Below, one piece after another: positions 4,578 through 47,145 of a stretch of DNA of 64,000 nt. This stretch comes from Amoebophrya sp. A120 (taxonomy: Eukaryota; Protista; Dinoflagellata). The notes below the pieces were generated by a model that saw only the letters and a list, made by a program, of their open reading frames with translations, made no database searches and was not told the DNA's origin. Where the stretch lies: contig CAJINV010000004.1 in assembly GCA_905178155.1 (NCBI GenBank), forward strand, positions 6,720,842 to 6,784,841, read 5' to 3'. The stretch's first letter is position 1; every line of letters starts with the position of its first letter. A program made the position numbers and the translations under genes.

Positions 4578-7500
4578 ATGCCGCCGAAAGGTGGCGGCGC
4601 CGCCGAGCTGGAGGCGAATTCCACCTTTGAGGCCCGCGCGCCGGACGAGGTCCCCGCCCCCGAGGAAGTTGCCGCCTTCGAGCCGGCGACCAGGAGCCTG
4701 GCGCCGCGGCTGTACCCGGAATTTGATGCGGAAGCGATCGATCAAGTCAACTGGGGCTTCAATTTTGTCGAGTCGTACTACCCCGACGTGAATGTGGTGG
4801 ACAAAATCAACGTGAAGCAGAGCCCGGGTTCTTTCTTCGATGCCGACTTTCCGGTGTGGTCAAATGGAGTATGAGAGTGCACAAGTCCCCCTCCTCCTCT
4901 TTTGTATGGCATGAACGGCAATACAAGCATCAGCAAGAGTGCCGGTTTTGCATGACAAATTTGCGCTGGAGTGTAGTGCTATTTGGGCTGCCCGAACTTG
5001 TCATGCAAACAGTGCCAAGAGCCAAGGCGCAAATTAGGCATTTTGCATGACAAATGAGGGGGAGGGGGGGTTGTGCACTGTCAAATGGTGGCGCGGAGAA
5101 AATCGACAAGGGGGTAGCCGTATCCTGTGCAAAAGTATCGTACTCGTCTTGCAATCATGCATTACAAATCTTTCTCTTAAGGTAAATCAGCATTACAAAT
5201 TTTATCTCTCATGCTGAGGAAATTTGTAATGCATTTATACGATTACCTTTTGCAATGCATAAGCCGAGCGAACCACGGCCTGGCGCCGGGTCACGCACGT
5301 GAAGACTGCGGGACATACCTTGGAGCCACCTGGTATGGCGTTCTCAAACGTTACATTCTCAACTGTTACATGAATTTGTCATGCAAAAGAACCTTGTTAA
5401 GCCGGCAGATCCAGATGATCGAGCTGCTTCGCATGACAAATTTCGGGAGGGCTAGACAGCATCTAAATCTGCGCCAAACTTGTAATGCAAAAGGCGCAAT
5501 CTTCTTCCTTCCAATTTTGCCAGTCTTGCATTACAAATTCATGTTGTAAGAGTTGACGTTGAGAATGTAACATTTGAGAATGCCATACCTGGAGGTGCTG
5601 GAGGCGAGGAGGAAGGTGCGGGCGGAGATGCAGCCCCGGCCCCGCTGGTGCGATCTAGTTATTCATACATCTTCGTGATTTTCATTTTTATTGTCATGCA
5701 AGGTTCTAGTTCATTTTCATATTCTTTCATCCTCATACATAGTCATGTTCAAGAACGCGCACCAGCAATAGCAAAGAAAAGGACGCAGGAACAGGAAGTG
5801 GTCCTCACTACTACTCATTGCGTTCAATAAGATTCATGTGCTCCTTATTTGGATGAAATAAAAATGCAGGCCAGCGAGGGGAAAAGCACGCAAGATCAGT
5901 ATGACGAGTGGCTGGCCCCGCGAGGCGAGTCTTACTCGAAGTCCTGCATGGTTGCGTTTCTGGAGAACTGCAAACAGTCCGATATGTACAAGGAGCTGGG
6001 CGTCCCTGTGCCAAAGCCGCCGGCAGACGGTATTCATTGTACTCCGTTTATTGCGGTTTCGTGCTCTGTTCGCTGGAGAAAGAGTTGTAGAAAATGCAGT
6101 TGTACGGAGAAGTCGTCCGTTGCGACGTGCTGAATTTCAATTTTTTTCTGATGCAATTATTCGCTCCGAAACCAAAATCTCGCGACGCAAAATAAACAAT
6201 CGCTCCGTCAAAAAATATCCAGGCGACGAAGCGGAGCCGCAGCCAAAATACCTGCGCATGCCCGCCTGCATGTACGTGCAGCCCACGCAAGACGTGGGTT
6301 GCGCCCAGGCTATGGCGTCCGCTTTCGGGGTAATAGAGGAGAACTGCGCGGATAAGCTGCCGAACGGATCCTACCTCTGGGAACTGATCTACCCCCAGGC
6401 CGAGGTCAGTTTCAAGACGTTAGACCCACCAGCGCCACCCGCTGGGGAGGAGGAAGCGGCGGAGGTATGATTGAATCTTTAATCTTTTGTTTTGGTGCTG
6501 ATTGATGTGGTCCTCACGACCTAGTACCAGTACGCATCTGATTTCGGGTTGTTCGCTATTTGCATGCAGCAGCTGCACAAACGAAGAGGAAGATGATGCG
6601 GTAGTTAATACATCGAATTATGGTGTTGAAGTCCACAAGCACAACTGAGTTCATCTTCAACTTACTATCCAAATCAATTCTAAATTTCCGTCTCTCGAGG
6701 TTCCTCCCCCGCCGCCCCCTGGGAAATTGAAGCTCCCCATCATCAACCCCAGCGGGAAATACGTGGTGAAGCTCTTCATCATGGGTAAATGGCGGGCCGT
6801 CGTGGTGGACGACACCGTGCCCTGCGAGAGCCTCGACGACGGACAGACCTTCACTTCGCTGCTGCCAAACGCGTGCACGAACTCCATCCTGGCGCGCATC
6901 CAGCAGAACATGAGCAAAAAGCGCCGGCCGGCGAAGGTGGACCCCACTAAGGACTTGGACAAAAACGCCAGTCTTTGGTGCCAGATTCTGGGGAAGGCGA
7001 TCTTGAAGGTAAGTACGAATTCAGCTGTTCACGAATGAGGTTGAGGATTAGCTTCTGATGTGCAACTACAAGAAGAAAGCTCGTCAGCAGTTGCTTGTGA
7101 TTAACAGTGTTGATAGTTGTTCGCTGAATTCTTGCAAAAGGAGCATTGAATGCCAAGTGCAGGAGGGAGCATTCGGTAAACAAAGGACCTTGCTCTGCAA
7201 GGAGCGTACTCTCGCACGGCACGAGCTTCCTTTCACCACAGGTTTCCCGAGACTTCGACTTCGTACCCTTGCTCCACCTTTTAACCGGGTACATTCCGGT
7301 CGTGGAGCCCCTTACCTGGGCCTATGGATTGCAAAAGTGTCTGGGTCTGGAAGAATGCAACTTGTGATGCTGCATTTGGATTCCAAAAAAATCTGTATTG
7401 CATGAGCAGCAAAAGGAGTATAATTTCTGCTTCTACAAGGATAGGGCATTCGCATTTGTCATGCGGAATAGGCATCAAGATGCCTTCAAAAAATCTGTGA

Positions 7501-10500
7501 TGCTAGGGCGTGCATCACAGACATCATGGCTCATGCAAAACGTGCTTCACAACTCTCATAGTCTTCCAGACCCAGACATATTTGCAGTGCATAGGGCCCG
7601 GCTTTCCACGAAGATCGAGGACAAGAGCGAAATGCTGCACTTCATGCTGAAGCCGGAAAATAGTGAGCCCATGCAGCCAAGGAGCAGCTTCGTGGGCACA
7701 GGAGCAAATAATGCCGCGCAAACAGATAATTGTGAAGAGCCGAAGGAGAAGATTATTCCGCATTTGTTCGGCACGATTTGCGAAATCAACGAGAACAAGG
7801 ACGAGAAGGGGACATTGCTGCACAGGCAAGTGCGCGTGAAAATCGCGGGTGGGCTGAAGCTATGCATTGCAAAAGTACAACCGTATAACTAGCAGGCATC
7901 GCTCAACAATTATTTTCAAGAAGAAGAGAGTGTGACGTGTATTGCTTTTTGGGTTTGGCAACGATGTTTGTCAGGCCCAGGCGACGTGATGTGCAATTTA
8001 TACGAGCACTTTTGCAGGGGATAGAAGCCGGACTGGGCCATGGAGAGCAAAATGTTAAGGCACGTGAAATATCAAATGCAAATGTGTCTTGGTCTGGAAA
8101 GTTGTGATGCTAATGTCCGAATACTTATACGCAACCTGTGTTAGCAGGGGGGCGCGCATGAGAAGTTTCTGAGCGGCTTTAATGTCTAGCGTGCGCCGGC
8201 GCATGACAAAGAAATCGCCTTCTTGGATGACCACAAACAAGTGGCGCTGTAGCGCAACAAGCATGACAGACTTTTCTGTCTGGTTGGCCATCAAGGAGCA
8301 TGACAAACTTGCAACATTCTTCCAGGCCCGGAGATGATATTTGCAATGCATATGAAAATGGAGATGCCAGAATCGAGCGACAGTGAGGAGGACGCGGACG
8401 ATGACGATGGGAAAGATTCCGCGAGGCTGTCAGCGTCCGACCCGGGTGGCTTAACCGTAACGGCGGAGGAAATCGCGGAAAGAGAAAAGAAGAGGGAAGC
8501 GTATTATAATAGTTTTGGTGGTGGTGGGTTTTGTACTTAAATAACGTTATTAAGCAATACTCAATTTCTATTTCGTATTCGTCTTTGTCTTGCATGGAGT
8601 ACAACTCGTCGACTTCGATTTAGCATGACATGATCTCTGTGAAAGAATCTACGCGTCTTCCAACTACAGAGCGCGCAAGGCCCGCGAGGAGGCACGCATC
8701 GAACTTCGGCGCAAGTTGGAAGAGGGTGACAGTTTGACGCGGAATATCCTGAGTGAAAACGTCCCCACACCATAGTCAAGATGGGGAATCGGCTAGACAA
8801 ATCCACAAGCTTTGGCTCTTTTGCATGACAAATTTGGATTCGTAGTGTAGTGCTGTTTGAGCTAGCTCAGCAGCATCACAGATCTAGCATACCATGCTGA
8901 TTGGAGCATGACAAATTGCAAAGCACGATTATAAAATGCTTCTCATGGGGCTCCGCATGAGAAACATTTTCAGCATGCAGATTTGCATTACAACTATGGG
9001 GTGAGGACGTTTTTAAATAGGATACGGAATATCGACGGCGGCTACTGGATATGAAGTGCAAATATGTCTGGGTCTCCTTGAAGTAGAGTTTGGGCTTGTC
9101 ATGCACATTTTGCATGACCCGTCAGGTTTGTGATTCTGGTGCTAGCGTCACAGATTCTTTCAGAACGTCTTGATGCTAATTACGCATGACAAATGCCCTC
9201 TCCGCGACGTGCCAAGAGCTGACTCCTCTTGCTGCTCATACAGCACAGATATTTTTAGACTCCGCAGACAGCATTACAAGTCTCACACATTTGCAGTTGA
9301 TACTGGATCAACTGGACGGACGTGGTGGACCTGGCCACCCACTTCTCCTTTTACGAGTCCGCGGACAAATTCACCTGTGTGGAGCACTATGGATTGCAAG
9401 AGTGATCGTACTTGTACTAAAGATTGCAGTCATGCATTACAAATGTTCGCATTAAGGGAAATCCGCATTACAAATTCGATTTATCATGCAGAAGAAATTG
9501 AAATTTGTCATGCGCTAGCGATTTCTACTAGTTTAAGTTATTTTACTAGTACGAGTCTCTTGCAATGCATAAGCACGACTCGGTCCCGGTGGAAGACGCG
9601 GAGAGTTCGAAAGTCATGCTGTATCAAAAGGAAAAGACCCCCCTTCCCATATCAGAACGAAATTTCTGATGCTGGATTTGCGTACATAAATCAGCCTCGT
9701 CTTGCAGTAGAAGAGGACTGCAGGCCCATATCGAGCCTGACTGGAGAGGTTTTGTGACATAGGCGCCCAGCATGACAAAAGTCCATGCTGTAGGCCTAAC
9801 AGCATCACAAACCGCTGGCACAATGCGGGGGGCCTTCTCGGATTGCCTTCTTGCAAGACAGAAACGATTTGTGAGTACAAATCAGCATCACAAAAGATAT
9901 CTTTTCAGTAAGGGGAGGTGGGATTATTTTTCCTCGCGATATGCTGCCCACAAAGCCCATGCTCCTCACCGTCCGCGTCCGGCCGAGCAAAGGTGGACCA
10001 GGACAAACAGCGAGTGCAACAACTTCGCCCACTATCATTTGTAAAAACGTCCCCACCCCAGAGTCAAGATGGGGATTTTGCAACACATTTCTCGAGGTTT
10101 TGGGAGCCACGCATGACAAGTTGCAGGCTGTAGTGTATTGCAGTTTAGTAAGGGAAGCCGCATAACAAATCCATCTCCTCATCCTGTTTACAGCATTACA
10201 AGTTCCAAAATACAATGGGAAATGCCTCTTGTGAGGATGCGCATTACAAATGCTCTTGTGCTTGCAGATCTGCATGATAACTCTGGGGTGGGGATGCCTT
10301 TACACAGGAGACCCACCGATACTTCCTCATCCTCGGAAAAAATCACCGACTCCACGCTGCTGCTCTGGTCTGCCACGCAGCCCGACGGCACGCCTGAGGA
10401 GGGGGAAGAAGGACTACCCGACGAAGGAGCTAGTCCGGCGGACCCCGCGGAAACGGCGGCGCCAACCAAGGCGTCGTCGAAATCGTCGGGAAAAAAAGAA

Positions 10501-13500
10501 AAAGACGCAGCCGCGGGGTCTGGTACAACAACTTCCCAACAGGAACAACAGGGCGGGTCGACAAGTAGCACGGCCATTCCGACCTGCCAAGTCGTGCTCG
10601 CGGTGGAGCCGATGGACCCATCAGTACATGCGGGGAGCTACTTTTTCCGCGCGAACAACTGGAAGTTCAACAGCTACCCGAACACTACGAGCACAGGGTC
10701 CTCGGGTGGAAAAATATCAAACCCGTTCACGACCGGTTTCCAGAAGCTCGCAAATCACCTTTGTTACGCGAAGAAGGCCGCGGCTGGGAGTGCTGGTGCA
10801 GCAGAGAGCGATCCGGACGCGCCGGACCCGTTCTGCTACTTCGACTACAACCCGCTGGCGCTGTCTGCCACCTGCACACACGTGACGGGTCCGAACGCGC
10901 CAAGGGTGCAGGGGTGTTTCGACGTGCCGGTGGTCGCAAACGGGTCGGAGCTATGCTTCGCAAATATGTCTGGGTCTGCAAGAATGCAGGTTTCGTTTGT
11001 CATGCTTGTCTGGCATGACTCTTAGATCTGTGATGCATGAGCAGGACAAGGCCCTCTTGCCTGTCATGCAAAAACGCAGTTTGCCATGCAGTAAACGAAA
11101 CACATAAAAAACCGCTCAAAAAATTGTCATGCTTGGCGGCATATCGCAGTGCGCCCACCATTCACAGATTTGCATCACAACTTTCCGGACCCAGAACGAC
11201 TTGCATTTGATATGAGCACTGCTTCTTGCTGATCGAGGATCCGACAAAATCGGGAGCGAAACACCAGGTGTTGCTGAAAAAGTGCAGCGTGCCTAGTTCT
11301 GTATCAGGAGCCGAAACTACGACGCTGATGAACTACGAAGCCAGGGCGACATTCGTCGAGCCCGCGGACTACCTGGAGCAACGAGCACACATCCCGGTTC
11401 TGAAGATCGGAAGAGCACCGGACTGCGAAGACCCCCCGGTCACCTACCCAGCCGGGTACAGCCTGTGGGCGAAGTGCGAATTTAAATCCCGCCTCCCCGA
11501 CACGTATCCTGTGCAAAAGTATCGTACTCGTATAAATGCAGGTCGTTCATGACAGATCTGCTTTTTTAGCTTGTTCTGCATGACAAATTTCATTTTTCCT
11601 CTAGAAAAAATTTGTCATGCGTTTTGTACTAGTGCGATGCTTTTGTGATGCATAACACGGCGAAACGCACCGTGACCGCCTACACGCACTTCGCCGGCGA
11701 CCCGGAGTGCCGCCAGCACCTCCGGCTGCGGCTGTTGGTGCGGCGAAGAGCAGTTTCCGGAGAGCAACTTGTTTTCCCGGTTTGGTCAGAAATCGTGTTT
11801 GAAACGCCGTTCCTGCCCTTGTTTCAGTTCGACTTACCGGAGGGGGAGGACACGTTTTTGCTTTTGTTGGAGGGAAACATGTCGAAACCCGTTATCGAAC
11901 CGGTGTACTACGTGCACTTGTTTGAGCAACTCACCGAACCAACACCCGCGATCGCGCTGGAACCCTTCAGCGAGAGTTACGACGCGAAAAAAATCGGGTT
12001 TTCCAACAGAAAGTTGTACGAAGTGGCTTTGTCGGACCTGAAAACCTTCGATCCGTTGATTCTCCGGGAACGAATCACGGTGGCAGCCGAGCCGGTTTCG
12101 GAAGAGGAGCCAGCGGTGGTCTCCGCGTCCATGCGGGTAACCTGCAACTTTCCCGACGTTTTTTTTATCGCGAAATTGGTGTTGCAGCACCCGCCAAAGG
12201 AGGAGTTTCGGCCGGCGATGAAGGACAGATGGCAGTCGGGGGAGGAAGTTACGGAGGAAGAGGAATTGCCGGCGCTGGAATCGAATGTTAACGTAGATCC
12301 GGAGGAATTCGGCGGGAGGAAAAATTGGCTGTCCAGTCTGGAAACCATGTGCACGATGGAGGGCAAGGACGCGGTTTCTTTTATCCTGATTGAAAACGTC
12401 CCCACACCAGAGTCAAGACGGGAAATCTGCTAGACAAATCACACAGCTTTGGTTGTTTGGCATGATAAGTTTGTCCTCGTAGTGTGGTCCTGTTTAGCTC
12501 GCTCAGAATCATCACAGATCTAGCATAGCATGCCGATCCTCGCATCACAAATCCCAAAACACGCAAAACGAAATGCTTCTCATAGGGCTCCGCATGAGAA
12601 ACTTTTTTGGCATGCAGAATTGCACGACAACTCTGGGGTGGGAACGTTTTTACTCAGGATATCCTTCCCGCACCTGGAGCTCCAGGGCAACGCGACCTAC
12701 ATCCTGCAGATCGAACTAGACAGCAGCCGGTGCGTGGAGAGAACGGAGGTGCCGGTGAACAATGCGGAAATAGTCGCCTCTGAGGCGAATGGAGAGGAGC
12801 CAGCGGAAGAGGAGGAAGGAGCAGCTGAGAAGCCAGAGCCGTACAAATGGCGGTTAGAAATATTCGCCGACGGAGATCTGCAGGTCGGAAACGACACCAC
12901 TGAGTTTGACTTGGAAGCGATTGTCATGAAGAAATGGGCGAAACTGGCGGGCGTCCCCGCGGCGGAAAGGGAAGAAAAGGCGGAGGTAGCGAGGAAAGAA
13001 TGGCTCGAAGGAGGGGATCAAGGGTATATTATGAAAACCGTATAACGTTTCTTGTAGGTGTGGCTCCTGAATTATCATCGGTTGTAACAGACGGCAAGCA
13101 TCTTCCTGTATCGTGATGGTGCTTTTTGCAAAGTCTAAATCAAGATCAACTTTTTGAGTTGGCCGGGTCCACCTGAAGCTCATGCTCAATGTGTGAAACA
13201 AAAAGATGTGAAAATAGAGTAGGCGTGAGCCTGCGGGCCTAAATTCCGGTGGGTTGGTCGGTTGGTTGGTTGGTTTTGGACAGACGACATTTGAGCGAAT
13301 TTCCGATGTATGGAAACACGGCTTCGGGGTTCGGGCGCAGGATGGGCCTGCAGCTGCAGGCAGTTGTCCGTAACTTCCTCCGGTGGGTTGGTCGGTTATG
13401 TACAACGCAGAACCAAGTTAATCTCCGCTGCGCGCAGCACAAATCTGTGCTGCGCACAAATCTGTGCTGCGTGTTGCGCGCAAATCTGTGTTGCGCGCAG

Positions 13501-16500
13501 CTCGCCGGAGACACAAATCTGTGCTGCGTGGACGCAAATCTGTGTTGCGCGCAGCGCAAATCAGTGTTGCGCGCAGCTCGCCGCAGACACAAATCTGTGC
13601 TGCGTCGACGCAATCGGAGCTCCGGGGGGCCTCGTGAGGATTTGCGCGAGATAGAAAGAGGTCGGGGCTCCAGTGCTGCACTTTTCTCCAGCCAAGACCT
13701 GCGCTTCCTCAACCCAAGCAAAACACACTTGGGAAATAGAGACAAACTCGCGCAAAATTTGGATCAGCCCCCGCTTGGTCATGCCGGGCGGGCGGGGGCT
13801 TTTTGCGCAACCCCTTGGCTGCGCGAGCCCCTTGCTTGCAAACCCCTCGATAATAAATTGGGCCCCTGAGCATGCAGCTGCTCTCCCGCCCGGCTTCTCT
13901 TGAAGGCAGCCAAAGAATGAAAGTTCCACTTCTTGCCTGCCTTCAACATGTTTTCCCGAATCGGTTGTATGATTTCGGGGCTCCAGGCAGAAATCCGGGC
14001 CGCTGGCTAACAAATATTGGGTCGGGCGATTAATCTGCGCTGAATGATCAAGAAACCCAAACAAAGCCCACACACCTGCAAAGCCTAATCAGGAAGCCAG
14101 CCTCGCGCCGGTTGGGGCTTTTTAGAAGGGTCAAAAATATCTATCGCCCCACCCGCCCACCAGGCTGGTGGGTGGGTAGGTCGGTAGGCGTGGCCAAGGG
14201 GCAGCGCACGCTCGTGCCACCCACCCACCAGCGAGGTGGGTGGGTAGGTCGGTGGGCGTGGCCAATAGGCAGCGCGCGCTCCCTCGCCGCACCCACCCAC
14301 CAGGCTGGTGGGTGGGTAGGTCGGTAAGCGTGGCCAAGAGGCAGCGCGCGCTCCCTCGCCCCACCCGCCCACCAGGCTGGTGGGTGGAAAGGTCGGTAGG
14401 CGTGGCCAATAGGCGGCGCGCGCTCGTCTCAGACCCCCACCTGCCTGGTGGGTGGGCCGGTCGCTCGGCAGGCGTGGCCAATAGGCAGCGGAGGCTTGCT
14501 CCACCCACCCACCAGGCAGGTGGGCGGGTAGGTCGGTAGGCGTGGCCAAGAGGCAACGCACGCTCACCCCACCCACCCACCAGCGAGGTGGGTGGGTAGG
14601 TCGGTAGGCGTGGTCAATAGGCAGCGCACGCTCGCCCCACCCGCCCACTAGGCCCGTGGGTGGGTAGGTCGGTAGGCGTGGCCAAGGGACAGCGCACGCT
14701 CGCCCCGCCCACCCACCAGCGAGGTGGGTGGGTAGGTCGGTGGGCGTGGCCAATAGGCAGCGCACGCTCGCCGCACCCACCCACCAGGCTGGTGGGTGGG
14801 TAGGTCGGTGGGCGTGGCCAATAGGCAGCGCGCGCTCCCTCGCCCCACCCATCCACCAGGCTGGTGGGCCGGTAGGTCGGTAGGCGTGGCCAATAAGCAG
14901 CGCGCGCTCCCTCGCCCCACCTACCCACCAGGTGGGTGGGTAGGTCGGTAGGCGTGACCAGTAGGCAGCCGGCTCTGGGTGGAAAGGCACGCATAGGTAG
15001 GTAGGTGGGCCGGTGCGATCATGGTATTGCAATGAATCGAAAAGACGCCTGGTAGGTGGGTAGGTAGGCAGCTGCGGCAGTAATAGTGGATGAATCTCAG
15101 AAAAACACAAAACACAATGTAGCGGGTTCGGTGGGTCAAATGTCGTCTGTCCAAAACCAACCAACCAACCGACCAACCCACCGGAATTTAGGCCCGCAGG
15201 CCCACGCCTATTGTGAAAATATGACAAACAGGGAATACGAAGCCGTGTTTATGTGCAACATCGACACGGCCGAATCTACGGAAGCAGAAGATCCGCCAAA
15301 AACCAACGCGCAGAAAATCGAGGAAAAATACACACACTCCCTATCCAAGGATGGGCACATGAACCCGCACATGTTGATATCAAATGTAAAAATGTCTGGG
15401 TCTGGAAGGTTGGAGCTTGTGATGCTAATTCTGGATGATGCAAAAATCTGTGTTGCATGAATGCCAAAAGTTGCCCACTAAGTTGAGAGGAAGTTTCTCA
15501 TGCAGGATAGGCATGATAGCGATAGGGATCCCGCAGAATCTGTCATGCTAGGTCCTGCACTCCAGATGACATGGATCATGGAAAATCTGCATGACAAGTG
15601 TCAGAATCTTCCAGACCCAGATATTTTTACAATCCATAGCTGAAATTTCTCTACGACACGCTAGAGAAAGAGCCCCTGATATCCTGAGTAAAAACGTACC
15701 CACACCATAGTCAAGATGGGAAATCGGCTAGACAAATCCACAAGTTTTGGCTGTTTTGCATGACAAATTTGGATTCGTAGTGTAGTGCTGTTTGAGCTAG
15801 CTTAGCAGCATCACAGATCTAGCATACCATGCTGATTGGAGCATGACAAATTGCAAAACACGACTAGAAAATGCTTCTCATGGGGCTCCGCATGAGAAAC
15901 ATTTTCAGCATGCAGATTTGCATTACAACTCTGGTGTGGGTACGTTTTTACTCAGGATACCTGATCGAGGTGGACACGGGCATGGGGCCGAAATTTGTGG
16001 ATTTATCCAAGGAGGAAGTGGGCACGTCCGAGGCAACCACCCAGAAATGGGAAGGCTATAAGGAGGAGTGTTCGAAGTCCATTGAAATGAACAAGGAAAA
16101 CTTTACGAAGGTCGTGGAATGGTATAAAGTTTTTGAAGATGTTCATGTGGATGCTTCATCGATTTGGGCTTGGTTGGCGCAGCAGTACCCGTAGCGGATG
16201 CAGAATCAGTTGAATATTATCAGTTGTTACTTTCGCATATGAGAATGAGGGTGCTAAATGTTGTTTCACGAAAACAGAACGGCTGCTCGTCTTTTGCAGC
16301 GCAATGGCAATTATAAAGAACCAAGTATTATAAAGAACCAAGTAAAAGAAAAAGAAAATAAATGCCTCCTGTGTCTAGGTATGCCGCGTTACCATACGGC
16401 GAGACGGCACTGACAGAGACGCGCGAAGCGCTAGTCGCCTACACGAACACGCGATGGGAGAAGCGGGATGCGTTGAGTGAAACTTTATTGAAGGAGGAGT

Positions 16501-17215
16501 TCGACCTCGAAGCACTGAAAACCGCAGTCAGTGAAGCGATTGAGGCGGATGTCAAGGTAGTACAATATCGTGTGTACTAGTACGAGGACCCTGGGGAAGA
16601 CGAAGAGTTTAGTACTTGGGTTTGTCATGCGAGCTGAACATCCATGCATGTTGCAAAAATGCATACCAAAACGCTTGATACTAATCCAAAAAAACACAGA
16701 TCATCAGCCCGGACCTGGTATCCTCGGCCGAGGCCCGTGTGGACCTTGATGCGAGGATGGCGACTCTGGAAGAAAAAGTGACCGCGTACGAGGAACTAAA
16801 GACTGCCCTTGAGGAGCCAGTGGAGGAAGTAACGGAAGAGAGAACGAAGCAGGAAGAGCAGGCGGTGACATTGGTATTGATAAAGATTTTTTTGTCATGC
16901 ATAACCTGCAGCAGGAGTTCAGATTCCAGTATTATCAATGCATAGTCGTGCTGGCCACAACTAACTGCTGGCCTATTTTTACTCTTAAGTACGCTCCTTG
17001 TTACGTTGGTCCCTTCGAAAGAAAGAGCCAGCAAAACAAGAACCTACTTTACTTAGGTCGACGAGCTTCGCGTCGAGCTGGAGGCGGCGCAGGCCACAGT
17101 CACCAAAATCCTCCCGGTGGGGGAGACCGCGGTGCCGCTGGGCGAGCGCTGGGCAGGCCTGTCCGAGAAGGTCGGTGCGATCACTGCACCACCAGAGGCG
17201 GGAGAGGACGAGTAG
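4578..17215 (+). CDS. Androglobin-like / calpain-like large multi-exon protein (16 introners plus several GT-AG introns)
   Basis: Exons encode LYPEFDAEAIDQVNWG, WRRV, LWELIYPQ, INPSGKYVVKLFIMGKWRAVVVDDTVP, LWCQILGKAILK and GGYWINWTDVV, resembling the androglobin calpain-like domain; frame rejoins across the elements checked; final exon ends GEDE-TAG at 17215; single-gene extent inferred. Confidence 0.7.
4870..5085. mobile_element. Introner family B (~220 bp)
   Basis: TATGAGAGTGCACAA...TTGTGCACTGTCAAA; TSD TGGAG/TGGTG; removal restores SNGGAEKIDKG. Confidence 0.85.
5121..5261. mobile_element. Introner family A (~150 bp)
   Basis: TATCCTGTGCAAAA...TTTTGCAATGCATA; TSD AGCCG. Confidence 0.9.
5334..5587. 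mobile_element. Introner, single-copy type (254 bp)
   Basis: 30-bp TIR TATGGCGTTCTCAAACGTTACATTCTCAAC, 28/30 match; TSD CCTGG. Confidence 0.9.
7323..7593. mobile_element. Introner family D (~270 bp)
   Basis: TATGGATTGCAAAAGTGTCTGGGTCTGGAAG...CTTCCAGACCCAGACATATTTGCAGTGCATA; TSD GGGCC. Confidence 0.9.
7861..8023. mobile_element. Introner family A (diverged)
   Basis: TATGCATTGCAAAAGT...ACTTTTGCAGGGGATA; TSD GAAGC. Confidence 0.85.
8070..8352. mobile_element. Introner family D
   Basis: TATCAAATGCAAAT...ATTTGCAATGCATA; TSD TGAAA. Confidence 0.85.
8745..9024. mobile_element. Introner family C (~280 bp)
   Basis: TATCCTGAGTGAAAACGTCCCCACACC...GGACGTTTTTAAATAGGATA; TSD CGGAA. Confidence 0.9.
9050..9302. 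mobile_element. Introner family D
   Basis: TATGAAGTGCAAAT...ATTTGCAGTTGATA; TSD CTGGA; removal restores GGYWINW. Confidence 0.85.
9388..9571. mobile_element. Introner family A
   Basis: TATGGATTGCAAGAG...CTCTTGCAATGCATA; TSD AGCAC. Confidence 0.9.
9622..9941. mobile_element. Introner family E (~320 bp)
   Basis: TATCAAAAGGAAAA...TTTTCCTCGCGATA; TSD TGCTG. Confidence 0.9.
10033..10311. mobile_element. Introner family C
   Basis: TATCATTTGTAAAAACGTCCCCACCCCAGAGT...ACTCTGGGGTGGGGATGCCTTTACACAGGAGA; TSD CCCAC. Confidence 0.85.
10952..11212. mobile_element. Introner family D
   Basis: TATGCTTCGCAAATATGTCTGGGTC...GACCCAGAACGACTTGCATTTGATA; TSD GGAGC/TGAGC. Confidence 0.85.
11505..11654. mobile_element. 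Introner family A
   Basis: TATCCTGTGCAAAAG...CTTTTGTGATGCATA; TSD ACACG. Confidence 0.9.
12382..12661. mobile_element. Introner family C
   Basis: TATCCTGATTGAAAACGT...ACGTTTTTACTCAGGATA; TSD TCTTT/TCCTT. Confidence 0.9.
13428..13612. repeat. Short irregular tandem repeats of CAAATCTGTG(C/T)TGCG
   Basis: About 7 copies of the motif inside the 2-kb TIR element. Confidence 0.8.
14145..14970. repeat. Tandem array of 12 units of 68/72 bp, each with a CCCACCCACC...GGTGGGTGGG hairpin
   Basis: GCGTG anchor at 14188, 14256, 14328, 14400, 14472, 14540, 14608, 14676, 14744, 14812, 14884, 14952. Confidence 0.9.
15378..15638. mobile_element. Introner family D
   Basis: TATCAAATGTAAAAATGTCTGGGTCTGGAAG...CTTCCAGACCCAGATATTTTTACAATCCATA; TSD GTTGA/GCTGA. 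Confidence 0.9.
15680..15959. mobile_element. Introner family C
   Basis: Perfect 28-bp TIR TATCCTGAGTAAAAACGTACCCACACCA; TSD CCTGA. Confidence 0.95.
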
Positions 17216-18272
17216 GTGGGTATTTATTTGCTTCGATTATGAATAATGTGAGGCACCAGGATCTTCATATAGAAGTACACATCGAGATCGAGGAACAGAT
17301 ACAACAAGAACCCAAGTTAGTAGACTATTGTGTCAAGGTAAAAAACTCAAGCCAGAAAAAAAGAGTAGTACTACCCATTTGTACGAACCTTCTCCGATGA
17401 ACAAGTGTGACACCGTCCTGATTCGACTCATATTATTCACCTGTATCATTTGTATCGATGAAATGTCACCTGTACAAAGGATGATTATCTTGTCGCGGAA
17501 GCACAGTCGATTCGATTTTTGCACCAGGTCACATTAGAGGACAACATCCTTTTTATTCTGAATTAGATTCGATGACACCGACGAAAAAGGACCAAAACCA
17601 GACGATCGGCACGCTGTTGAGAATAGTATCAGAAGCTGAAACAGTAACTGCGAGTAGGTTGAGCATTTCTGGTTCTTGATGAAAGCGAGATTTGTAAATC
17701 TGTGGGTTCTGAAAGAGCTCTTCCGCTGAAGAAGGTGCTGCATAGTAGAAAGCAGTCCTCGTAATTGGAATGGCCCTTATTTCCAGGTTCTGGATCAATG
17801 TATGAGTATGAAAATGAAATGCAGCTAGTCCTCGATCCTTGCTAGAAGTAGCTGCACTCAGATCACCCCGAAAACCAAGATCTCTGAACAAGCGGGATCC
17901 AGCAGGAGCATGATTTGACACTTCCTTCGGAACAGTTCAAGAGAAAATATAAAATTGTGTCGTGGTTCTGGTTGCGAAATCATAATCCACAAGCAAAGGC
18001 TCTTCACGGTCACAGAGACGATGATCCAGTAAAAGGTGAGAAGCAAGCTTGAAAAGAAACTCGCCTTCACCTCTGCACAAGATCTCGGAAGTGTTGTTCA
18101 GGCATTATTTTGTGCAAAGTAAACATCTTTTCAACCAATACATGACCTCGCAGCACGACGCATTCAAGTAGATTTCATTATCGATCGTTTGTTCTACTGC
18201 ACCGCTGTTGAATATAACAAAGTAAGAAAAGAAAAACAACCCTCTAGCTGCAGTCAAATTTTTTCCAAAAAA

Positions 18273-21083
18273 ATGGCGGAGAAGATTTCAAAGCGATCGG
18301 CCGACAGCGCCGCTGGCGCCGAGGGCGTCACGAAGAAAAAGAAGAAGCAGAAGACGGAAGCGAAGGAGGCAGTCGCGGTTGAGGAGCCAAAGGTTGCTGA
18401 AAGTGAACAAACCGCACCTGCCTCTACTACCGAGAAGAAGAAAAAGAAAAAGAAGAATAAAGACAGCAGCCCAGCTGGTACCGAGGAAACTAGCACCACC
18501 GCAACAGCCGCTGGCTCCCCAACTACGGAGGAGGAAGTAGTCGCTGCTGTTGAAGAGCCGGTCGTTGCAGAGAAAAAAAAGAAGAAAAAGAAGAGCAAAG
18601 ACACGACAGGAGATGTTGATGTTGTTGAAACGGCGGAAAATAAGAAAACTGCAACAGCAGAAGTTGTAGTTCCAGCAGCAGCTTCAAAAAGTAGCCAAGC
18701 AGACCACTCTTCCCACCCCTTTTACGCGGAGCACAACATTACCGTGACTGGTTGCCCCGCCCCGAAGCCCGCCGTGAAATTTTGCGAGTCCGGTCTTCCG
18801 AAAGAGGTTGCGAATCTCTGCGAGCAGAAATTCGGGAAGGACGGCAAGCCCAGCCCGATTCAGGCGGTGGCGTGGCCGCTGATCATGGAGAAGAAGGACG
18901 TTTTCGGAATCGCGAAGACCGGTTCGGGAAAGTCCCTCGCGTTTGTGTTGCCGTATCTTGCGAAGCGGCTGCAGGAACACAAACTAGCGGTCCAGAACGG
19001 GGAAGAGAAGAAGAAGCAGAAGAAGCACCACTACCCCTCCATGGTCTGTCTCGCGCCGACCAAGGAATTGGTCCAGCAAATCGCCGAAGTGGCGGAGGAA
19101 TTCACGAAGCAACTGGATTTACAGCTCACCGTCCACTGCATTATCGGTGGCGTGCCGAAATACGAACAGGTGAATAAAATTAAGAAATCCGCGTGCGATT
19201 TGGTCATCGCCACCCCCGGGAGACTCCTCGATTTGGTCGAGAACGACCAGGTTTTGAACCTATCCAAATGCGAATACTTGGTGTTGGACGAGGCCGACCG
19301 CATGTTGGACGTATCCTGAGGAAAAACGTCCCCACACCAGAGTTGTCATACAAATGTGCAATGACAGGAACATTTGTAATGCGCAGCTCCATGAGAGGAA
19401 TTTCCAATCTTGTTTTGCAATTTGTAATGCTTTAAACAGGATGTGAAAATGGCTTTCTCATGCGGCTTCTCTTGCCAATCAGCACTACACGGCAGAGGGA
19501 AATTTGTGATGCACAGCTCCCAAAACCTGGAGACTTGTGTTGCTAGATTCCCAACGCCATCTTGACTATGGGGTGGGGACGTTTTTGCTTAGGATAGGAC
19601 GACGGGTTTATCCTATCCATCCGAAAAATCGCGGACTACTGCACAAACGAAGACAAACAAAAGCACCGGCAAACGGTGCTCTTCTCCGCCACCTGGCCGA
19701 TGGAGGTGAACAAGCTCGCGCGGGGCTTACTCCCCAGCAGCGAGAAGCGCGACGAAGCGGTCACGATCACGATTTTGCGGAAGGGGCAAACGATCGACGA
19801 CCCGGATAACATCAACACGGAGGATAAATTATGCATTGCAAAAGTATCGTACTAGTATGAATCGCATCACAAATTTTGCCAAGAACAAATCTGCAATTTG
19901 TCATGCTCGGCAAGGTAGCAAGTTAGATTTGTAATGCATGACAGCAATTACTACGAGTGCGATACTTTTGCACAGGATACAAATTGCAGCTAAACGACGC
20001 GATCAAGCAAAAGTTCCACATACTACCGGACGGACGGCAGAAATACGGGTTGTTGACGAAGACACTGAAGGAGAACAAGGACAAAAAAATTTTGATCTTT
20101 GGCTTGTACAAGAAGGAAGTCGCGAATTTGGAAAACTGGTTGAGGCAAGAGGGCCACAAAATCGTCGCATTGCAGGGCGACATGCTGCAGGACAAGCGGA
20201 CGAAAGCGATTGAGGATTTCAAAAAGAGTACTAGAATTGGGTTTTCTTGGTGGTTTTTGTCATGTACTGCGGATGTAGGTGGACCTACTTTGTTAAGATC
20301 CAAAGTTTTCGTGATGTACACAACAGCATGAGAAATTCTATTCATTTTTATCTATAAACACAAAAACCGTTATCTATGACAAGACTGTCACATAAATTGT
20401 GCTCGAGTGTACGTCCACTCACAACAGGATGAGATAACGACAGAGACTAATGTCAAGGACAAACACACAGATGATGATGATGATGATGATGATGATGACA
20501 CAAAAACCGAATTATGAAACCAAACAGACGTCTGCCGCCTTCTCGTCGCCACGGACGTCGCGGCGCGCGGCTTGGACATTAAGGACATTGACATGGTAAT
20601 CAACTACACTTTCCCCCTCACCTGCGAAGACTTCGTGCACCGCTGCGGGCGAACCGGACGGGCGGGCAGGACCGGACAGGCAATTACGTTTTTCAACACA
20701 ACGGGGGAGCACAAAGAACGGGAGCACTGTATTGCTATTGATTTTGGCGTTTTTTTTGGCTGAAAAATTTACGAAATCCAAATCGGCTTGCCACAAGCGT
20801 GTTCTGATGCGGCGCAAACATCAATAATGATGAAATGCAATAGGAGGTTAGTAAGTATTCTCATTTTGAATAATTGCAAAACACAGGCTTCGACATCATC
20901 CGCCTGTTGGAAGGCGCGAAGCAGCCGGTGCCGGATGAATTGAAGAAACTGAACGCCAACACTTTCACAGCGACGAAGAAAAAATCGCACGGTATGTACG
21001 GAGATTTTTTCAAATCAGCCGAGGAAATGGAAAAGTTGAGCAAGAAAAAGGTCCAGATGAGCTTTGACTCCGACTCGGACTAG
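18273..21083 (+). CDS. DBP3: ATP-dependent DEAD-box RNA helicase DBP3 (2 introners, 2 GT-AG introns)
   Basis: Lys-rich N-terminus; [44 protein letters not shown] and [10 protein letters not shown] motifs; DBP3-type C-terminus [13 protein letters not shown]. Confidence 0.88.
19312..19596. mobile_element. Introner family C (opposite orientation to 8745)
   Basis: TATCCTGAGGAAAAACGTCCCCAC...GTGGGGACGTTTTTGCTTAGGATA; TSD GGACG; removal restores [11 protein letters not shown]. Confidence 0.95.
19830..19979. mobile_element. Introner family A
   Basis: TATGCATTGCAAAAGTATCG...CGATACTTTTGCACAGGATA; TSD TAAAT/CAAAT. Confidence 0.9.
20471..20497. repeat. (GAT)n microsatellite in a DBP3 intron
   Basis: About 9 GAT units. 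Confidence 0.9.
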
Positions 21084-21677: not shown

Positions 21678-24600
21678 ATGCTGCGAGGAGGTTGGCGGGC
21701 GCTGGTCCTGGTGTGGGTCGCGGGCTTCAGTAGAGATATTGGACAAGAAGCCTCAGCGCTTTCATTGCAGAGGAGGCTGCAGCATTTTCGCGATCAGAAA
21801 GTAGAGCTAGGCGTGGTCCAGGGCCGGTCTAGTGTGCGCTTGCAGACGAGTAGAAGAACTTTTCGACGGCGCCAGAACACCCTGCTCACAGACAACGCTA
21901 CCGCAAGTTCGACCGCAGCAAGTTCTACCCCGGATCCGACCGTCTGCGAGAACATCCACGCCCCGGCAAACGCGGCGACCTTTACCTGTGGCTCGACTTT
22001 GAAAGCGGGAACCTCTTGCTCCGACTTCACGTGCGCAGCCGGGTTTGAAAAAGTAAGCGCCTTCACCTGCGGATCATCTGGAGCCAACGGAGAGGCCACG
22101 GGGTTGTCCACACGGGGGCAGTGCAAGAGAAAGTTTTGCCCGGCCGCGGCAATCGTCAGTGCGCTCGGGAAAATCGAGAATGCGAACAGCACGATCGTGG
22201 AAATAAATAAATCTTCTTCCAGCATCAAAGGGTCCTTCTCGTCTTGTGACACGAAAAACCCGCTAGCCGCTGGCCAGACTTGCGACCCGGTGTGCAACAC
22301 GGGCTTCGTCGCGACGGGCAGCTTGACGTGCAATCCCGCTTCTCTGCAACTTGAAGGGCCGGCGGGCTTGAAATGCGTGACTGCGATGAAGCAGGATGTT
22401 GAACAAGGGAGCAAGCAGAACTGCAGCAGTCTCGTTCTCCCCCTGCATATGAGAGTGCACAACTCCCCCTCCCCTCATTTGAAGGGCATAAGCAGCAACA
22501 CAAGTGCTGGCATAAAGCAGCTTTTGCATGAGAAATTTGCGCCCGATTCTAGTGGTGTTTTGGCTTCCATAACCTGTCATGCAAGCAGTGCCAAAGGGAA
22601 AAGGCTCGAACTCGATTTGGTATTTCGCATGACAAATGAGGGAGAGAGGGGGTTGTGCACTCTCATGCTGCATGCGAAGAGCTCGGAGTGTGGGTCGTTG
22701 AAACCCGGGGAGTCCTGCGACAAATTTTCCTGCAACACCGGGTTTACGAAGAGCGGAAAATTCGTTTGCTCAGCGGTCGATGCCAACAACGTGACCAGCC
22801 TGCTGGAAGTCGGCAGATGCGAAAAAACTACCTGCAGAGTATTGTCGGAGGGAGGCGCAGCTGATGAAACCACTGACCTGATCAAATCCTTATCAACCGC
22901 CATCCCGCAAATATCCCTCCCCTTTCTAAACACCTCCTTCTCCAACAACGCCGTCCGCCTCTTTGCCAACGAATCACTCGAGCTGGAATGCAACCCGGGG
23001 TACAAATCCACCGGCAGTCTGAAGTATCCTGTGCAAAAGTATCGCACTGATACGAATTGCAGTTATGCATGACAAATGTTCTTTCCAAGGTAAAACAGCA
23101 TGACAAATTCAATTTTTCAGGCTGAGAAAATTTGTAATGCAATTGATACTAGTACGATACTTCTGCAATGCATATGAAGTGCGGGGCTGATGGGAAAATC
23201 TTTGAAAAGCCAAGTTGCGTTCGGCTCAACTGCAGTTCTTTTACCACTCTTAATGCGACAAAATCCTGCGGTGTTCTCTCCTCAAACCAAACCTGCAGCG
23301 ATTTCACGTGCTCCACCGGCTTCACCCCTTCTGGTCAGTACCAGTGTGCCAGTGATGCGACGCACTTGATCACGCTTGGCTCCTGCAGTCGGAATTTCTG
23401 TCCGATGATCCCGAAGCCGAACAACAGCGTCAGTTGGAACACCACTGGTAAAAAGCTCGCCGCGGGAATGACGAAACGGCTGCAGTGCGCGGTCGGTTAC
23501 AAAGCCAAAGGGAAATTCGTTTGCAACAGTGAGGGCAACAACATCACGGAAATGGCCTCCTGCGAACGGCAGTACTGCCAGGGGATTGTCCCGCCCGCGA
23601 ACGCACTGAATTTCTGGTGTCAGATATTGCAATGAAAAATGCCCCCACCCCCGAACTTGTAAGCATTTGTATTGCAAACCTTTCGAAATGAAACACTCGC
23701 CCTCTTGCATGTATCAGCATCACAGATTTCCAATCGTGAATAGCAAAAATTTGTATTGCAAAAGATCCCAGCAAAAGCGGCGCTTGTCATGCAAGCGCTG
23801 CGACACACGCCTAGACTCTGCATCACAAAGATTCATACTCCTTTTATGCATGACAAAAACCTTTCATTTGGAAACTTTGCATCACAAATTATTGCAATTT
23901 CAGGGGTGGGGGGCACTTTTCACTGTAATATCAGACCATACCCAGCGGGGAGAATTGTACCCTGACCTGTGCGGAGGGATACATGCCATCTAGTACAGGA
24001 GCAAATGTCGCGAATGGAACTACATCTTCGAGCAATCTTTTCGTCTGTAACAAAGACGCGACCAACGTCACTACCGTTCCGACCTGCGTTATCGCAAGAA
24101 AAAAGTGTTACAGGAGTTGCATTGTGTTGCAGGCCAAGCAAGACAGACCAGCTCTTTGATGCCGGATATGCATAGGAGCTTCGTTTCATAGGCGTTTTCC
24201 CTTAGGATTTCTGCATTGCAATTTTTCTCTCTCATGCAGAGAAATTTGTGTTGGTGAATTGACAACAAATGTTTAACTGTAAAACTTTTTTCGTGGGATA
24301 TGCGTGAGGAAGCAATTATCCGCCATCCCGCCAGAAAACGCCGCGCTCCCCTTCCCCTGCGCGTCTGTTTCTTCGAACGCAACGTGTCAACACCAGTGCA
24401 ATCTCGGGTACGCCGTGGTTGGGAAATTCACGGTAAATTCCGACGGGTCGAATTTCACGGAACAGGGGTCCTGCTTGCGGAAAACCTGCGCGAACTTGAC
24501 ATCCCCCGCCAACGCGACGAATTTTAACTGCCAGCAAATCAACAGCGGCGAGGCGTGCAACATCACCTGCATCACAGGTTTCGACGCGATCGGCGAATTT

Positions 24601-26156
24601 CGCTGCAGCGCCAGCGGTATGAACTGCAAAAGCATCGTACTAGTATAAATCGCATGGCAAATTTTCTCAGCATGAGAAAGGAAATTTGTAATGCGGACTC
24701 GCCTTAACATAAAAAAATTGTCTTGCATACATGCGATTAGTACGAGTACGATACTTTTGCACAGGATAAGCGGTGACGAAGTGGTGTCGAAAGCGAGATG
24801 CAATCCGTCGAAGTTATACCTGTCGATCGTCAGACGGGAAAAATCATTGGAGAAAAATTATGGAAGACTAGTCGCAAACGTGGAGACTTTGCAATCCAGG
24901 TTGAATTTGTTTCGGAGAAAAGTGGCAACGCCCCTGGACGTCAGTTCGACCTCTTTTGGTGGATCCTCGGGCTCAGCTATTGGGCAGCAGGCAGCAACGA
25001 TGAAAACAGCTGTTTCGAACAATTTCAACGTTTTGCAGGCTAAGGCGACCGAGACCGAGCAGGAATTGGCGAAGGTGCAGACAAGTGTCGCGTCGAATGC
25101 GAACCTCCTCGCCTCCGCGCTCTTCGCGCGGACGTTTGCGAGTGCGCGGGCGGATCAAAACACGACAGCTACTGCTCCAGGCACAAATAATGCCAGCGTT
25201 GTAGTTGTCGCGACCCCTCTTGATGTTCCCGTTTCTGGTGGCGGCGGAAGCACTGTTAAAAATGCGCCGTTTTGGCAGGAGTTGGACCGCCGCAGCCCGC
25301 GACTCGATCAAATGATCAACCAAACCCAGGGTTTACAGGAGAAAGTGGCGCCGACAAGTACAACTTCTACTTCTAGAGAGAATAATAGCTCTACAACTTC
25401 TACTTCTTCCAATGGAACCGCAACCACAGCATCAGCAGAAACGGGCCAAGCCAATAACACCGCCACCGGGTCGTCGCTCTCTGTGCGGGAGCGGGTGCGC
25501 AAACTCGAGACGGATTGGGAGGAAGCGAAGCCACTGATCGAGAAAAAAATGGTATCCTGAGTAAAAATGTCCCCACCCCAGAGTTGTCATGCAGATTTGC
25601 GATTACATACAGGAAGATTTGTAATGCGCATCTCCTTCAGGGGCGTTTCCAATCGTGTTTTGGAATTTGTAATGCTGTAAACAGGATAAGCAGATGGATT
25701 TGTGATGCGGTTGTCGTTGCTAACTTGCACTACACTACGGACTGCAACTTGTCATGCGTGACTTCCAAAACTTCTGGATTTGTGTTGCTAAGTTCCCACC
25801 TTGACTCTGGTGTGGGGACGTTTTTACATATGATAAATGGCGAAATTCTCGGAAAACGAACACAAGACTTTGAGTAATCCGGTGGAATACTTCGTGAATT
25901 TGACCGCTTCGGATGTTTTATGCTGTGCAAAACTATCGTACTCGTAGTAATTGCAATCATGCATTACAAATTCCTTTTTCAAGGTAAAACCGCATTAGAA
26001 ATATCATTTCTCACACAGGCAGAGGAAATTTGTAATGCATTTATACGAGTACGATACTTCTTGTGCATTGAATATGTTTTGTCGAACGAGATGAAGGCGA
26101 TCATCCTCGGGGTCGCGAAAAACTGGGGAATGGCGGTGAAATTGGGTAGTATGTAG
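21678..26156 (+). CDS. Secreted cysteine-rich repeat (sushi/CCP-like) protein with coiled-coil C-terminal part; 7 introners
   Basis: Signal-like MLRGGWRALVLVWVAG; repeated C..GxxC...CxxGF...GxFxC....C modules; frame continues across elements into the repeat at 26150; true end may lie beyond 26882. Confidence 0.7.
22448..22667. mobile_element. Introner family B (in-frame, stop-free)
   Basis: TATGAGAGTGCACAAC...GTTGTGCACTCTCATG; TSD CTGCA. Confidence 0.9.
23025..23174. mobile_element. Introner family A
   Basis: TATCCTGTGCAAAAGTATCG...CGATACTTCTGCAATGCATA; TSD TGAAG. Confidence 0.9.
23625..23930. mobile_element. Introner, single-copy type (306 bp)
   Basis: TATTGCAATGAAAAATGCCCCCACCCC...GGGGTGGGGGGCACTTTTCACTGTAATA; TSD TCAGA. 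Confidence 0.9.
24090..24300. mobile_element. Introner (~210-bp type)
   Basis: TATCGCAAGAAAAAAGTGTTACAG...CTGTAAAACTTTTTTCGTGGGATA; TSD TGCGT. Confidence 0.85.
24618..24768. mobile_element. Introner family A
   Basis: TATGAACTGCAAAAG...CTTTTGCACAGGATA; TSD AGCGG. Confidence 0.9.
25553..25835. mobile_element. Introner family C
   Basis: TATCCTGAGTAAAAATGTCCCCAC...GTGGGGACGTTTTTACATATGATA; TSD AATGG. Confidence 0.9.
25919..26074. mobile_element. Introner family A
   Basis: TATGCTGTGCAAAACTATCGTACTCGTA...TACGAGTACGATACTTCTTGTGCATTGAATA; TSD TGTTT. Confidence 0.85.
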
Positions 26157-26882
26157 TGAGGTCACCGAACGGTTCTAACCAGGGAGTTTTTTTGACAGCT
26201 ACCCTGAAAAACGACCGGCAGTTTTCAAGCGGCCGGAGGCGTTTTTTGACATAAAAATTTTTTAATTATCAAGCGGACGGGGCTTTGCCGTCAAACAAGC
26301 CCGGTCGAAAACTATCGACTCGCACTTGATAAAACGACGCAGGGGAGCCGGCAAAAGGGGCGCCCTTCTGAGGCGCCCGCCGCCTTGGTTTCTGGCGATT
26401 TGGGGCGCCCAAAAAGGGGCGCGCAAAAAACGCGCCCAAAATCAGAACAGCGAAACAGCACGGCACGGCCGCGATTTCGGAGCATTTTGGGCGGCCGCGA
26501 AAGCGGCTGCCTTTTCGCCGGTTTCAGAGCCTGGGAAGCTTTGCAAAAGGCGCCGGCGTGAAAAATAAAAACGCGAAAAAGAAAAAGCGCCCCAGGCGCG
26601 CAAAGCCAATCCGCATGCTATGGGCCCGATTTTCCTTCGCTTTTTGGGCGCCCCCCGTGGCACCCGGATCGGCCCCATAGCATGGGGGCTGTCCTTCGGA
26701 AAGGAATTTCGGTAATTTGCCAAAATTTGCGATGTTTATCAAGCGGCCGCCATACCGTGCGGCCTAACGTTACTCCCGGCGGTATGGCGAGCCCAGAAAA
26801 AGCAAAGCCGCGGCCAAGGCGATGGCCGGCAAGAAAACGCCCACGACCTCACTACCTCCGCCCCGGCGGCTATATTTGGTAG
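26150..26882. mobile_element. ~730-bp dispersed repeat, copy 2 (Helentron-like), inserted at the 3' end of the Cys-rich gene
   Basis: Same termini and body as 3574-4306; GGTAG at 26145-26149 and 26878-26882. Confidence 0.75.
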
Positions 26883-27153
26883 CTCCTCTGCGGGGGGTGG
26901 CAGTGGTGGTGTTGGGTCAGGATCTGTTTGACGAGTAACAATTTGTCCTCACATCAAGCTGAATATCAATATTCGTATTGTGCTTTTCTTTTCCACAAAA
27001 TGAAAAAAGAGCTTTGGTAGCGCAGCTCCCGATGTACGTTTTCTTTTCTCTTGAGGTTGAAATAACGTTCCGTAAGAGGTGTGGAAGATAGATCGCCTAT
27101 TTTCACCAGCACCGGAGCCCATCGCCCGACCTAGAGTTGCGGAACCCGCGTGC

Positions 27154-29400: not shown

Positions 29401-30195
29401 GTCGGCTCAGCAGTCAGAGTGCCGGAGGCAGGTGCTGCGTGTTCATGTCGACAAGAAAATCAGCGTCCCAAGGATGCCCCTATTTTAGTCGCGCCTGTTT
29501 TGCAATTGTGACGTGTTGATATTCAATCCACCTGGCTGCAATTATTCGCTCCTTGCCGGTTATTTCTTTTCCACCCTCCCTAAACGAGGGTACAACGAAA
29601 GCTCGGTTGCTTGCCAGTACTACGCTGCGTTCCTTTCGTATCTTTCTAGAGAGCACGAAGTTAATTATCGGTCCTCGGAATTCAGCAGGCTCCCTAACGG
29701 CGTCCTCTTGGTAGTCTTTGATTGTCGTTCGTGATTTTCGTTGTTCGTGCATGTGAGTATTTCTTTATGAAAGGCAAGCGCTGAGTGATGTAGGTGTAGC
29801 TCTCGTCGGTGATGTTGCAGTTGCTTTTCTGTCGTGCGTGACCATCATTATGTGTACGCTCGTACTTCCACTCGTACCGTGACCGTTTCCACAAGGCTTT
29901 TCTTCGTCGGCGCAACTCGTACAATGACAATCTAGGTGGCCTACTGCTCAACTATACCGTACAGCAATTCGTCAATTTGGTTTCGCTTTGTCGTCGCCCT
30001 GATCCCACTGGCCATCTCCTCAAACCAAGGATATTTCTCTTTTCTTGTTCTTCACACACAGGTGGGCGCGAAGTTTGCGGAACCCGTTAAAGAGATAGCG
30101 TCGTAATAAGTAATTGTGTTTCCGTGCAACAAATTTGACTTTATTTTTAGATCGAGTCGCTGCATCTCGCGAGCATATCTTGCTAAAGACCGACA

Positions 30196-32051: not shown

Positions 32052-32177
32052 CGACAATTCGTTTTCATATTAGTCCTCCCCAGGACACAAGGAAGCTGTC
32101 TCTCTTAATCCTTGCTTTTTTAGTTCATTTCTCCATCCTTTTCCATATCCTTTTAGCAAAAAGCCTGGCAGCTGCAT

Positions 32178-46805: not shown

Positions 46806-47145
46806 ACAGTGTCTACGTTGATCACCTGCGGTACGGGTTGTTGAAAGATTTTGTGCAAAGCATCGACACGGAATGGACCAAACAAGAGTATCCGAGAGCA
46901 AAATTTTCAGTGAATTATTTTGTCTTGTAGTAGTACTTTCACACGAAAAATTACACCTCTGCGTCGAACAGCTCGCCTTTGCAGATATATCAGCTCGCAC
47001 TTCGATTGGTTCTCGATAGAGTGTACAACCACGACGCACGAAGTCTTCCCAGCGCAAGAAAGACAGGTCGCTTTTTGGTTCTCGCAAAGCGTGTAATTAA
47101 GTACTCAAGTACAACCTACCACCATGGAAAATAATAAAATATCAC

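Follow-up and report, generated by a model that had tools for sequence, protein, structure and literature searches.

When a short insert flanked by two copies of its target site is removed from a transcript, which of the two copies stays in the message? The question is raised by a 64,000-nucleotide stretch of the genome of Amoebophrya sp. A120 (contig CAJINV010000004.1, positions 6,720,842 to 6,784,841 of the forward strand), called the window below. It carries 41 short elements, 141-327 base pairs (bp) long with a mean of 231, all with 5-bp target duplications. These are likely to be introners of the Amoebophrya A120 type, that is, small inserts resembling transposons, bounded by TAT...ATA and flanked by a target duplication of 5 bp; the element class itself is already known. 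The explanation favoured here, which is probable when taken as a whole, is that each introner is removed together with five bases at a fixed cut between positions 4 and 5 of the duplication, the upstream copy being kept at positions 1-4. The run of silent mismatches seen in the window would then reflect silent drift of the coding (upstream) copy together with a chance run.

The window elements were found by a scan for inverted ends and flanking repeats, followed by a homology check. A BLAST search of the elements against the window gave no match outside the 41-element list. TAT stands at the left end of all 41, the full TAT-N7-AAA motif is present in 32, and ATA stands at the right end of 37. 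Inverted terminal repeats, a duplication and small size are found together, as in a miniature inverted-repeat transposable element (MITE), a non-autonomous transposon. Element families occur in both orientations within the window, and have relatives up to 97% alike in other loci. All 41 elements sit in frames of the + strand, and excising an element plus five bases yields long frames on that strand. This clustering of genes on one strand, together with the end motif and the mixed intron types, is in keeping with strain A120 as the host. A codon model that ignores the duplication gave the same frame as the frame-length method in 39/39 elements (two were left unset); both use the same data and are not independent.

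Duplications are perfect in 35 of the 41 elements, have one mismatch in five and have two mismatched positions in one, at 46484; a perfect 5-bp duplication is expected by random match with a probability of about 0.001. The initial annotation had described five mismatched duplications in 4865..19984 as the only imperfect ones, and as all synonymous in the host frame. Synonymy is borne out at every site. The five are indeed the only imperfect duplications within that span, where 13 of 18 elements have perfect copies, but not across the window, since the sixth imperfect site at 46484 is partly non-synonymous.

The copy kept in spliced contigs

Contigs of runs X3 and X5, from one sample and probably (by guess) RNA, were aligned to 4500-20300, where they skip four GT-AG introns. 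The splice joints given here are those among the joints listed. At perfect duplications the alignment sets the joint just ahead of the upstream copy (11499->11655 and 19306->19597). At mismatched duplications the joint is shifted beyond the mismatch in both runs (12379->12665, 15374->15641 and 19825->19981), with the upstream T retained at each of the three. Contig pieces also stop at 10947 (X3 and X5) and at 4868 (X3), with the upstream G and the upstream A retained, respectively. The upstream base is thus carried at all five mismatched sites, which fall at duplication positions 1, 1, 2, 3 and 4, and the dominant cut therefore lies downstream of position 4. Six of the joints, including those of the elements at 11505, 15680 and 19312, show removal of the element plus five bases without GT-AG ends.

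Mismatched sites had been proposed as markers for the cut point, and in this they succeed. They would place, for the first time, a cut left open in the published account of these introners (PMC7789003). Mixed bases, which had been suggested as a sign of a sliding junction, do not appear at the five sites: the contigs (not raw reads, and blind to rare forms) give the upstream base only.

The raw-read runs X9 (159 reads) and X10 (129 reads) lie almost wholly on element repeats; 99% of these reads continue into unlike sequence, and for this reason the runs give no junction base counts. These runs, which are raw RNA from another sample, show element sequence, its foreign flanks coming from single loci, at 15376-15460, 8774-8809 and 15709-15765. 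The pattern is one of abundant transcripts keeping a related element.

Placement with respect to position 5 comes from one locus outside the window, L047, where the upstream copy gives a stop codon and the downstream copy gives Trp within a long frame. The 5' cut would most likely lie between duplication positions 4 and 5. Reassignment of the stop codon was considered for L047 and rejected, as frames run past TGA in 2/40 cases in the loci, comparable to 3/27 for TAG. Two other stop-codon cases, with the stop in the downstream copy (L046 at 1374 and L033 at 2608), were left unused at frame margins of 5.5 and 4.9.

Mismatches in other loci

The comparison set consists of at least 155 loci (262 kb) on contigs with the prefix JACKZZ01, found by scanning with 22 bases of an element end and so chosen for an intact end. 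The loci carry the same element families and may belong to another strain than the window; their 40 longest matches to the window are all element-sized. Ends were paired by likeness to known ends, without use of the duplication, and the library of ends was grown from perfect cases. Among 304 elements, mismatches number 0, 1, 2 and 3 or more in 220, 66, 10 and 8. Four elements were excluded as mis-paired or decayed, and another for want of a full codon or flank; a frame margin of 8 was reached by 207.

The proposed tally of synonymous and non-synonymous mismatches was made on these loci. In the 207 confidently framed elements 64 bases are mismatched, of which 27 are synonymous and 37 are not. 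Of the single mismatches, 21/43 are synonymous at margin 8, 33/66 without the confidence filter, and 8/19 and 7/13 at the strictest margins. Wrong frames were considered as the source of the non-synonymous half and rejected, the share being stable from margin 8 to 25. Synonymous sites make up 27.6% of duplication sites, with mismatch rates of 0.094 per synonymous and 0.049 per non-synonymous site, a ratio of 1.91 (95% interval 1.16-3.12). The result comes close to the neutral rate of non-synonymous mismatches which the initial annotation had said would refute it: a twofold per-site silent excess is real, and a silent-only rule is not supported.

Under a model with one coding copy and another that is free, the expected ratio is 2/(1+dN/dS), or about 1.7-2, where dN/dS is the ratio of non-synonymous to synonymous substitution rates. 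The observed synonymous share of 0.42 matches the 0.39-0.43 that this model predicts at dN/dS 0-0.2. Two coding copies predict a share of 0.66 at dN/dS 0.2, which is rejected (p=0.0002), and are compatible with the data at 0.4 (p=0.32). A frozen coding copy, the null on which the initial annotation relied, is rejected as well (p=0.012). Acceptance of non-synonymous change, summed over both copies, is 1.04 (0.64-1.72), against a dN/dS of 0.2 over 544 codons in a pair of transporter-like paralogues in the window (32200-35010 vs 36312-41580). Some differences between copies are radical (e.g. Leu/Pro and Tyr/Cys). Paralogues sought among the loci supplied no usable residue for any non-synonymous site, and nearest-neighbour identity does not differ between mismatched and perfect elements (p=0.18).

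The chance that five of five mismatches are synonymous had been put at about 0.002 (0.3^5). This is too low because silent drift of the coding copy was omitted; the corresponding 0.27^5 holds only with an unchanging coding copy. With such drift the chance is 0.009-0.015, and at the rate seen in the loci it is 0.028-0.031, both before correction for a pattern selected by eye. The silent-only pattern is likely to be a chance run on top of the real twofold excess.

How the cut may be placed

Removal of the element plus five bases preserves the frame in 198/198 elements framed separately on each side (34 in the window and 164 in the loci), a test of length modulo 3 only. Nine of these carry 2-3 mismatches, and the frame is kept in all nine. 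Mismatch numbers per element are near binomial (220/66/10/3/1 for zero to four, vs 213/75/11/0.8/0 expected), so that multiple mismatches are not depleted. Taken together, the intact frame and the lack of depletion suggest that the removed length is set by the element ends. A fixed cut would thus depend on how far it lies from the element's paired ends, not on comparing the two copies. The element at 46484 lies outside the span of the five sites, and its frame survives only with element plus five bases removed. It has CGGAAA on both flanks, an apparent 6-bp duplication resembling a one-base slip, and could serve to tell distance from matching, unless the A-run is mis-assembled.

Several results weigh against the favoured explanation. 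The placement at position 5 depends on a single stop-codon case, the frame test detects length modulo 3 only, and codon-likelihood polarity is uninformative, favouring the upstream copy in 30/50 cases at positions 1-4 and in 8/14 at position 5. Contigs lose rare forms, so minor junctions would not appear in them, and they represent one sample whose RNA status is guessed. Non-synonymous mismatches number 1 among 152 sites of the window, compared with 37 among 749 sites of the loci (Fisher p=0.013, with 7.5 expected in the window), a deficit left unexplained, while its synonymous rate is the same (6 in 53 sites); the sole non-synonymous case, at 46484, has the likeness to a slip. Synonymous single mismatches, 5/5 in the window vs 21/43 in the loci, differ at p=0.054. 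The pattern was picked by eye, so the deficit is not compelling. In the loci, non-synonymous mismatches are more conservative than random changes, with a mean BLOSUM62 score of 0.19 vs -0.38 (p=0.02) or, in a second comparison, -0.52 (p=0.007); against the -0.21 expected from one coding and one freely drifting copy, p=0.07. Both the window deficit and the conservative skew would allow for a minor second junction, and the loci may come from a different strain.

The initial annotation had inferred that either copy can end up in the mRNA, or else that the removal machinery constrains the intronic copy. A sliding junction as the main route is not supported, given the upstream base at 5/5 sites and the 27/64 synonymous bases, which reject two coding copies at dN/dS 0.2, though not at 0.4. 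Its weaker form, a leaky junction in which the upstream copy dominates, a minority of transcripts use the downstream one and both are under some coding selection, is improbable. The deficit in the window and the conservative skew (p=0.007-0.02) both speak for it, it is compatible with dN/dS 0.4, and its rare products would be invisible in contigs. It sits poorly with the uniform upstream base, with the stop codon in one copy at L047, with the radical differences between copies, and with the rejection at dN/dS 0.2, a value taken from one paralogue pair.

Constraint on the intronic copy, by machinery that requires matching copies or reads the last intron bases, is very unlikely. It could account for the 35/41 perfect duplications in the window, whose nearest relatives found are only 77-92% alike (the true nearest copies not being sampled), and non-synonymous mismatches are scarcer at positions 3-4 (10/295 vs 27/454 sites, p=0.12). 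Yet 37 non-synonymous-looking bases stand in the 207 loci elements, frames are intact in 9/9 elements with 2-3 mismatches, and double mismatches are not scarce. A matching rule would also act to the same degree against silent changes of the coding copy, so no silent-only pattern is expected from it. Least probable of all is that alleles without the insertion, by recombination or gene conversion, bring silent polymorphisms into one flank, as far as the insert itself, and raise the silent share in some strains. This could explain a strain difference between window and loci without any effect of splicing, but is unnecessary for explaining the loci.

With a fixed cut between positions 4 and 5, the intron would start with N-TAT, like the GTAT donors of this genome with a free first base; three of four RNA-supported canonical donors start with GTAT. 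Its end would lie four bases beyond the hairpin and lack an AG. Among 247 framed duplications (window and loci) no bias to GT or AG was found, and position 5 is G in 66. The first T of TAT is present in 247/247 elements at the transcript-5' end vs 241/247 at the 3' end (p=0.03, post hoc), and this invariant T would correspond to U at +2 in an N-UAU donor. In Table S4 of the A120 genome study, all nine predominant A120 intron motifs begin with N-T, given the authors' placement of ambiguous borders (PMC7789003). From the resemblance of N-UAU to GTAT donors we infer that the spliceosome may perform the cutting.

Both orientations of the element are functional, with one end type lying at the 5' side 60 times and at the 3' side 50 times. 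The ends of the 247 elements are asymmetric by transcript direction, with an invariant first T at the 5' end and a third base better kept at the 3' end (deviations 0/6 for the first base vs 5/1 for the third, p=0.015, post hoc). The best-kept base of the 3' end is an A seven bases from the putative intron end (246/247 vs 242/247). A branch-point spacing of seven bases is a feature of group II introns; a branch role for this A is speculation. An unlikely, though conceivable, extension is splicing without any 3' sequence signal. The hairpin would be the whole landmark, with an N-UAU donor at its 5' foot, an acceptor given by a count of four bases beyond its 3' foot, and the A seven from the end as branch point.

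The elements agree with A120 introners in size, in end motif and in the length of the repeat, and likewise occur mixed with introns of the GT-AG type. The sections of Farhat et al. 2021 (PMC7789003) drawn on here describe an inverted repeat starting from TAT with seven variable bases and then As, a length of about 240 nucleotides, many families, non-GT-AG ends backed by RNA, and a direct repeat of 3-5 nucleotides over the exon/intron boundary (5 bp in the legend of Fig. S19). They report more than 60% of introns in these genomes as non-canonical and U1 small nuclear RNA as not found. The legend of Fig. 3 gives the border position as unknown and the splice sites as variable; here, in contrast, mismatches set the dominant cut downstream of position 4.

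Introner-like elements of Polarella and Symbiodinium, as far as described in the portions consulted of 10.1101/2020.10.14.339549, are alike in transposon origin, inverted ends, target duplications and several classes in both orientations. Some of these classes have 5-nucleotide duplications and a donor made of the last duplication base and the first element base. They need G-starting donors and an AG from duplication or element, whereas the duplications here have no such bias. A canonical spliceosomal introner of the Aureococcus/Micromonas/Polarella type was set aside, as the GT/GC/GA donor and AG acceptor which that type takes from element or duplication are not the rule here. Euglenid non-conventional introns (PMC11282704) and Fritillaria non-canonical introns (PMC13326754), in the parts of those papers used, share an end-joining stem, duplication-like junction repeats and MITE-like origin, but have different end motifs. 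Circular excision products are described for the former (PMC11282704) and a divergent U2AF for the latter (PMC13326754). An end-joining stem of the euglenid type is predicted in the one element folded (19830-19979, z=-3.5), whose ends would pair as a long stem.

Other features of the window and the meaning of the proposed fixed cut

Table 1. Introners and host genes, in positions of the window.
Feature	Coordinates	Strand	Duplication (upstream / downstream)	Remarks
Introner 4870-5085	4865..5090	+	TGGAG (4865-4869) / TGGTG (5086-5090)	Position 4, GGA/GGT Gly; right end decayed
Introner 10952-11212	10947..11217	+	GGAGC / TGAGC	Position 1, TCG/TCT Ser
Introner 12382-12661	12377..12666	+	TCTTT / TCCTT	Position 3, TCT/TCC Ser
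Introner 15378-15638	15373..15643	+	GTTGA / GCTGA	Position 2, TTG/CTG Leu
Introner 19830-19979	19825..19984	+	TAAAT / CAAAT	Position 1, GAT/GAC Asp; predicted long stem
Introners, first six with perfect duplications	within 5116..19601	+	Perfect	5121-5261, 5334-5587, 7323-7593, 7861-8023, 8070-8352, 8745-9024
Introners, other seven with perfect duplications	within 5116..19601	+	Perfect	9050-9302, 9388-9571, 9622-9941, 10033-10311, 11505-11654, 15680-15959, 19312-19596
Introner 46484-46767	46479..46772	+	GGAAA / CGGAA	Two positions differ, one non-synonymous (Glu/Gly)
22 further introners (22448 to 63160)	22443..63318	+	Perfect	In four other gene groups
Host gene 1, calpain-like (weak)	4578..17215	+		16 introners and GT-AG introns; both ends inferred from frame
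Host gene 2, DEAD-box RNA helicase	18273..21083	+		2 introners; PF00270, E=2.4e-36; spliced contigs; ends inferred from frame

The calpain-like assignment of host gene 1 comes from a PF00648 match (E=4.4e-4) under the curated cut-off; a Pfam search of nine exon pieces gave no match in seven. Its GT-AG joints in spliced contigs are 13022->15231, 16120->16378, 16554->16698 and 16872->17056. The 2.2-kb GT-AG intron at 13023-15231 contains a tandem array of 68-72 nucleotide units within its own inverted ends, near 13220-15210. Three paralogous transporter-like genes (32200-35010, 36312-41580 and 60898 onward) carry 1, 11 and at least 1 introners.

An intergenic repeat of about 730 bp lies at about 3574-4306 and 26151-26883 (86% alike over 300 nucleotides). 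It has the ends ATGTAGTGAGG...TATTTGGTAG, without TAT/ATA inverted ends, and is likely to be another mobile element. A long nested inverted repeat at 30196-32051, foldback-like, has 505-nucleotide arms that are 87% complementary and inner arms of 207 nucleotides.

A literature search, with most subscription papers beyond its reach, found no report of a cut mapped by duplication mismatches. In Table S5 of the A120 study, "possible RNA editing" (3% of A120 introns) falls mainly in the first and last intron bases (PMC7789003). Some of it may stem from duplication mismatches where the border was misplaced.

The lasting value lies in the method and its first result: mismatched duplications, which make up about 15% of those in the window and 27% of those in the loci, mark the cut in existing RNA data. 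Splicing without a 3' signal, if true, would make any 5-bp site, in either orientation, a harmless insertion target. A fixed, AG-free cut set by distance, if true, would explain insertion into any coding 5-mer, and would settle exon boundaries in the annotation.

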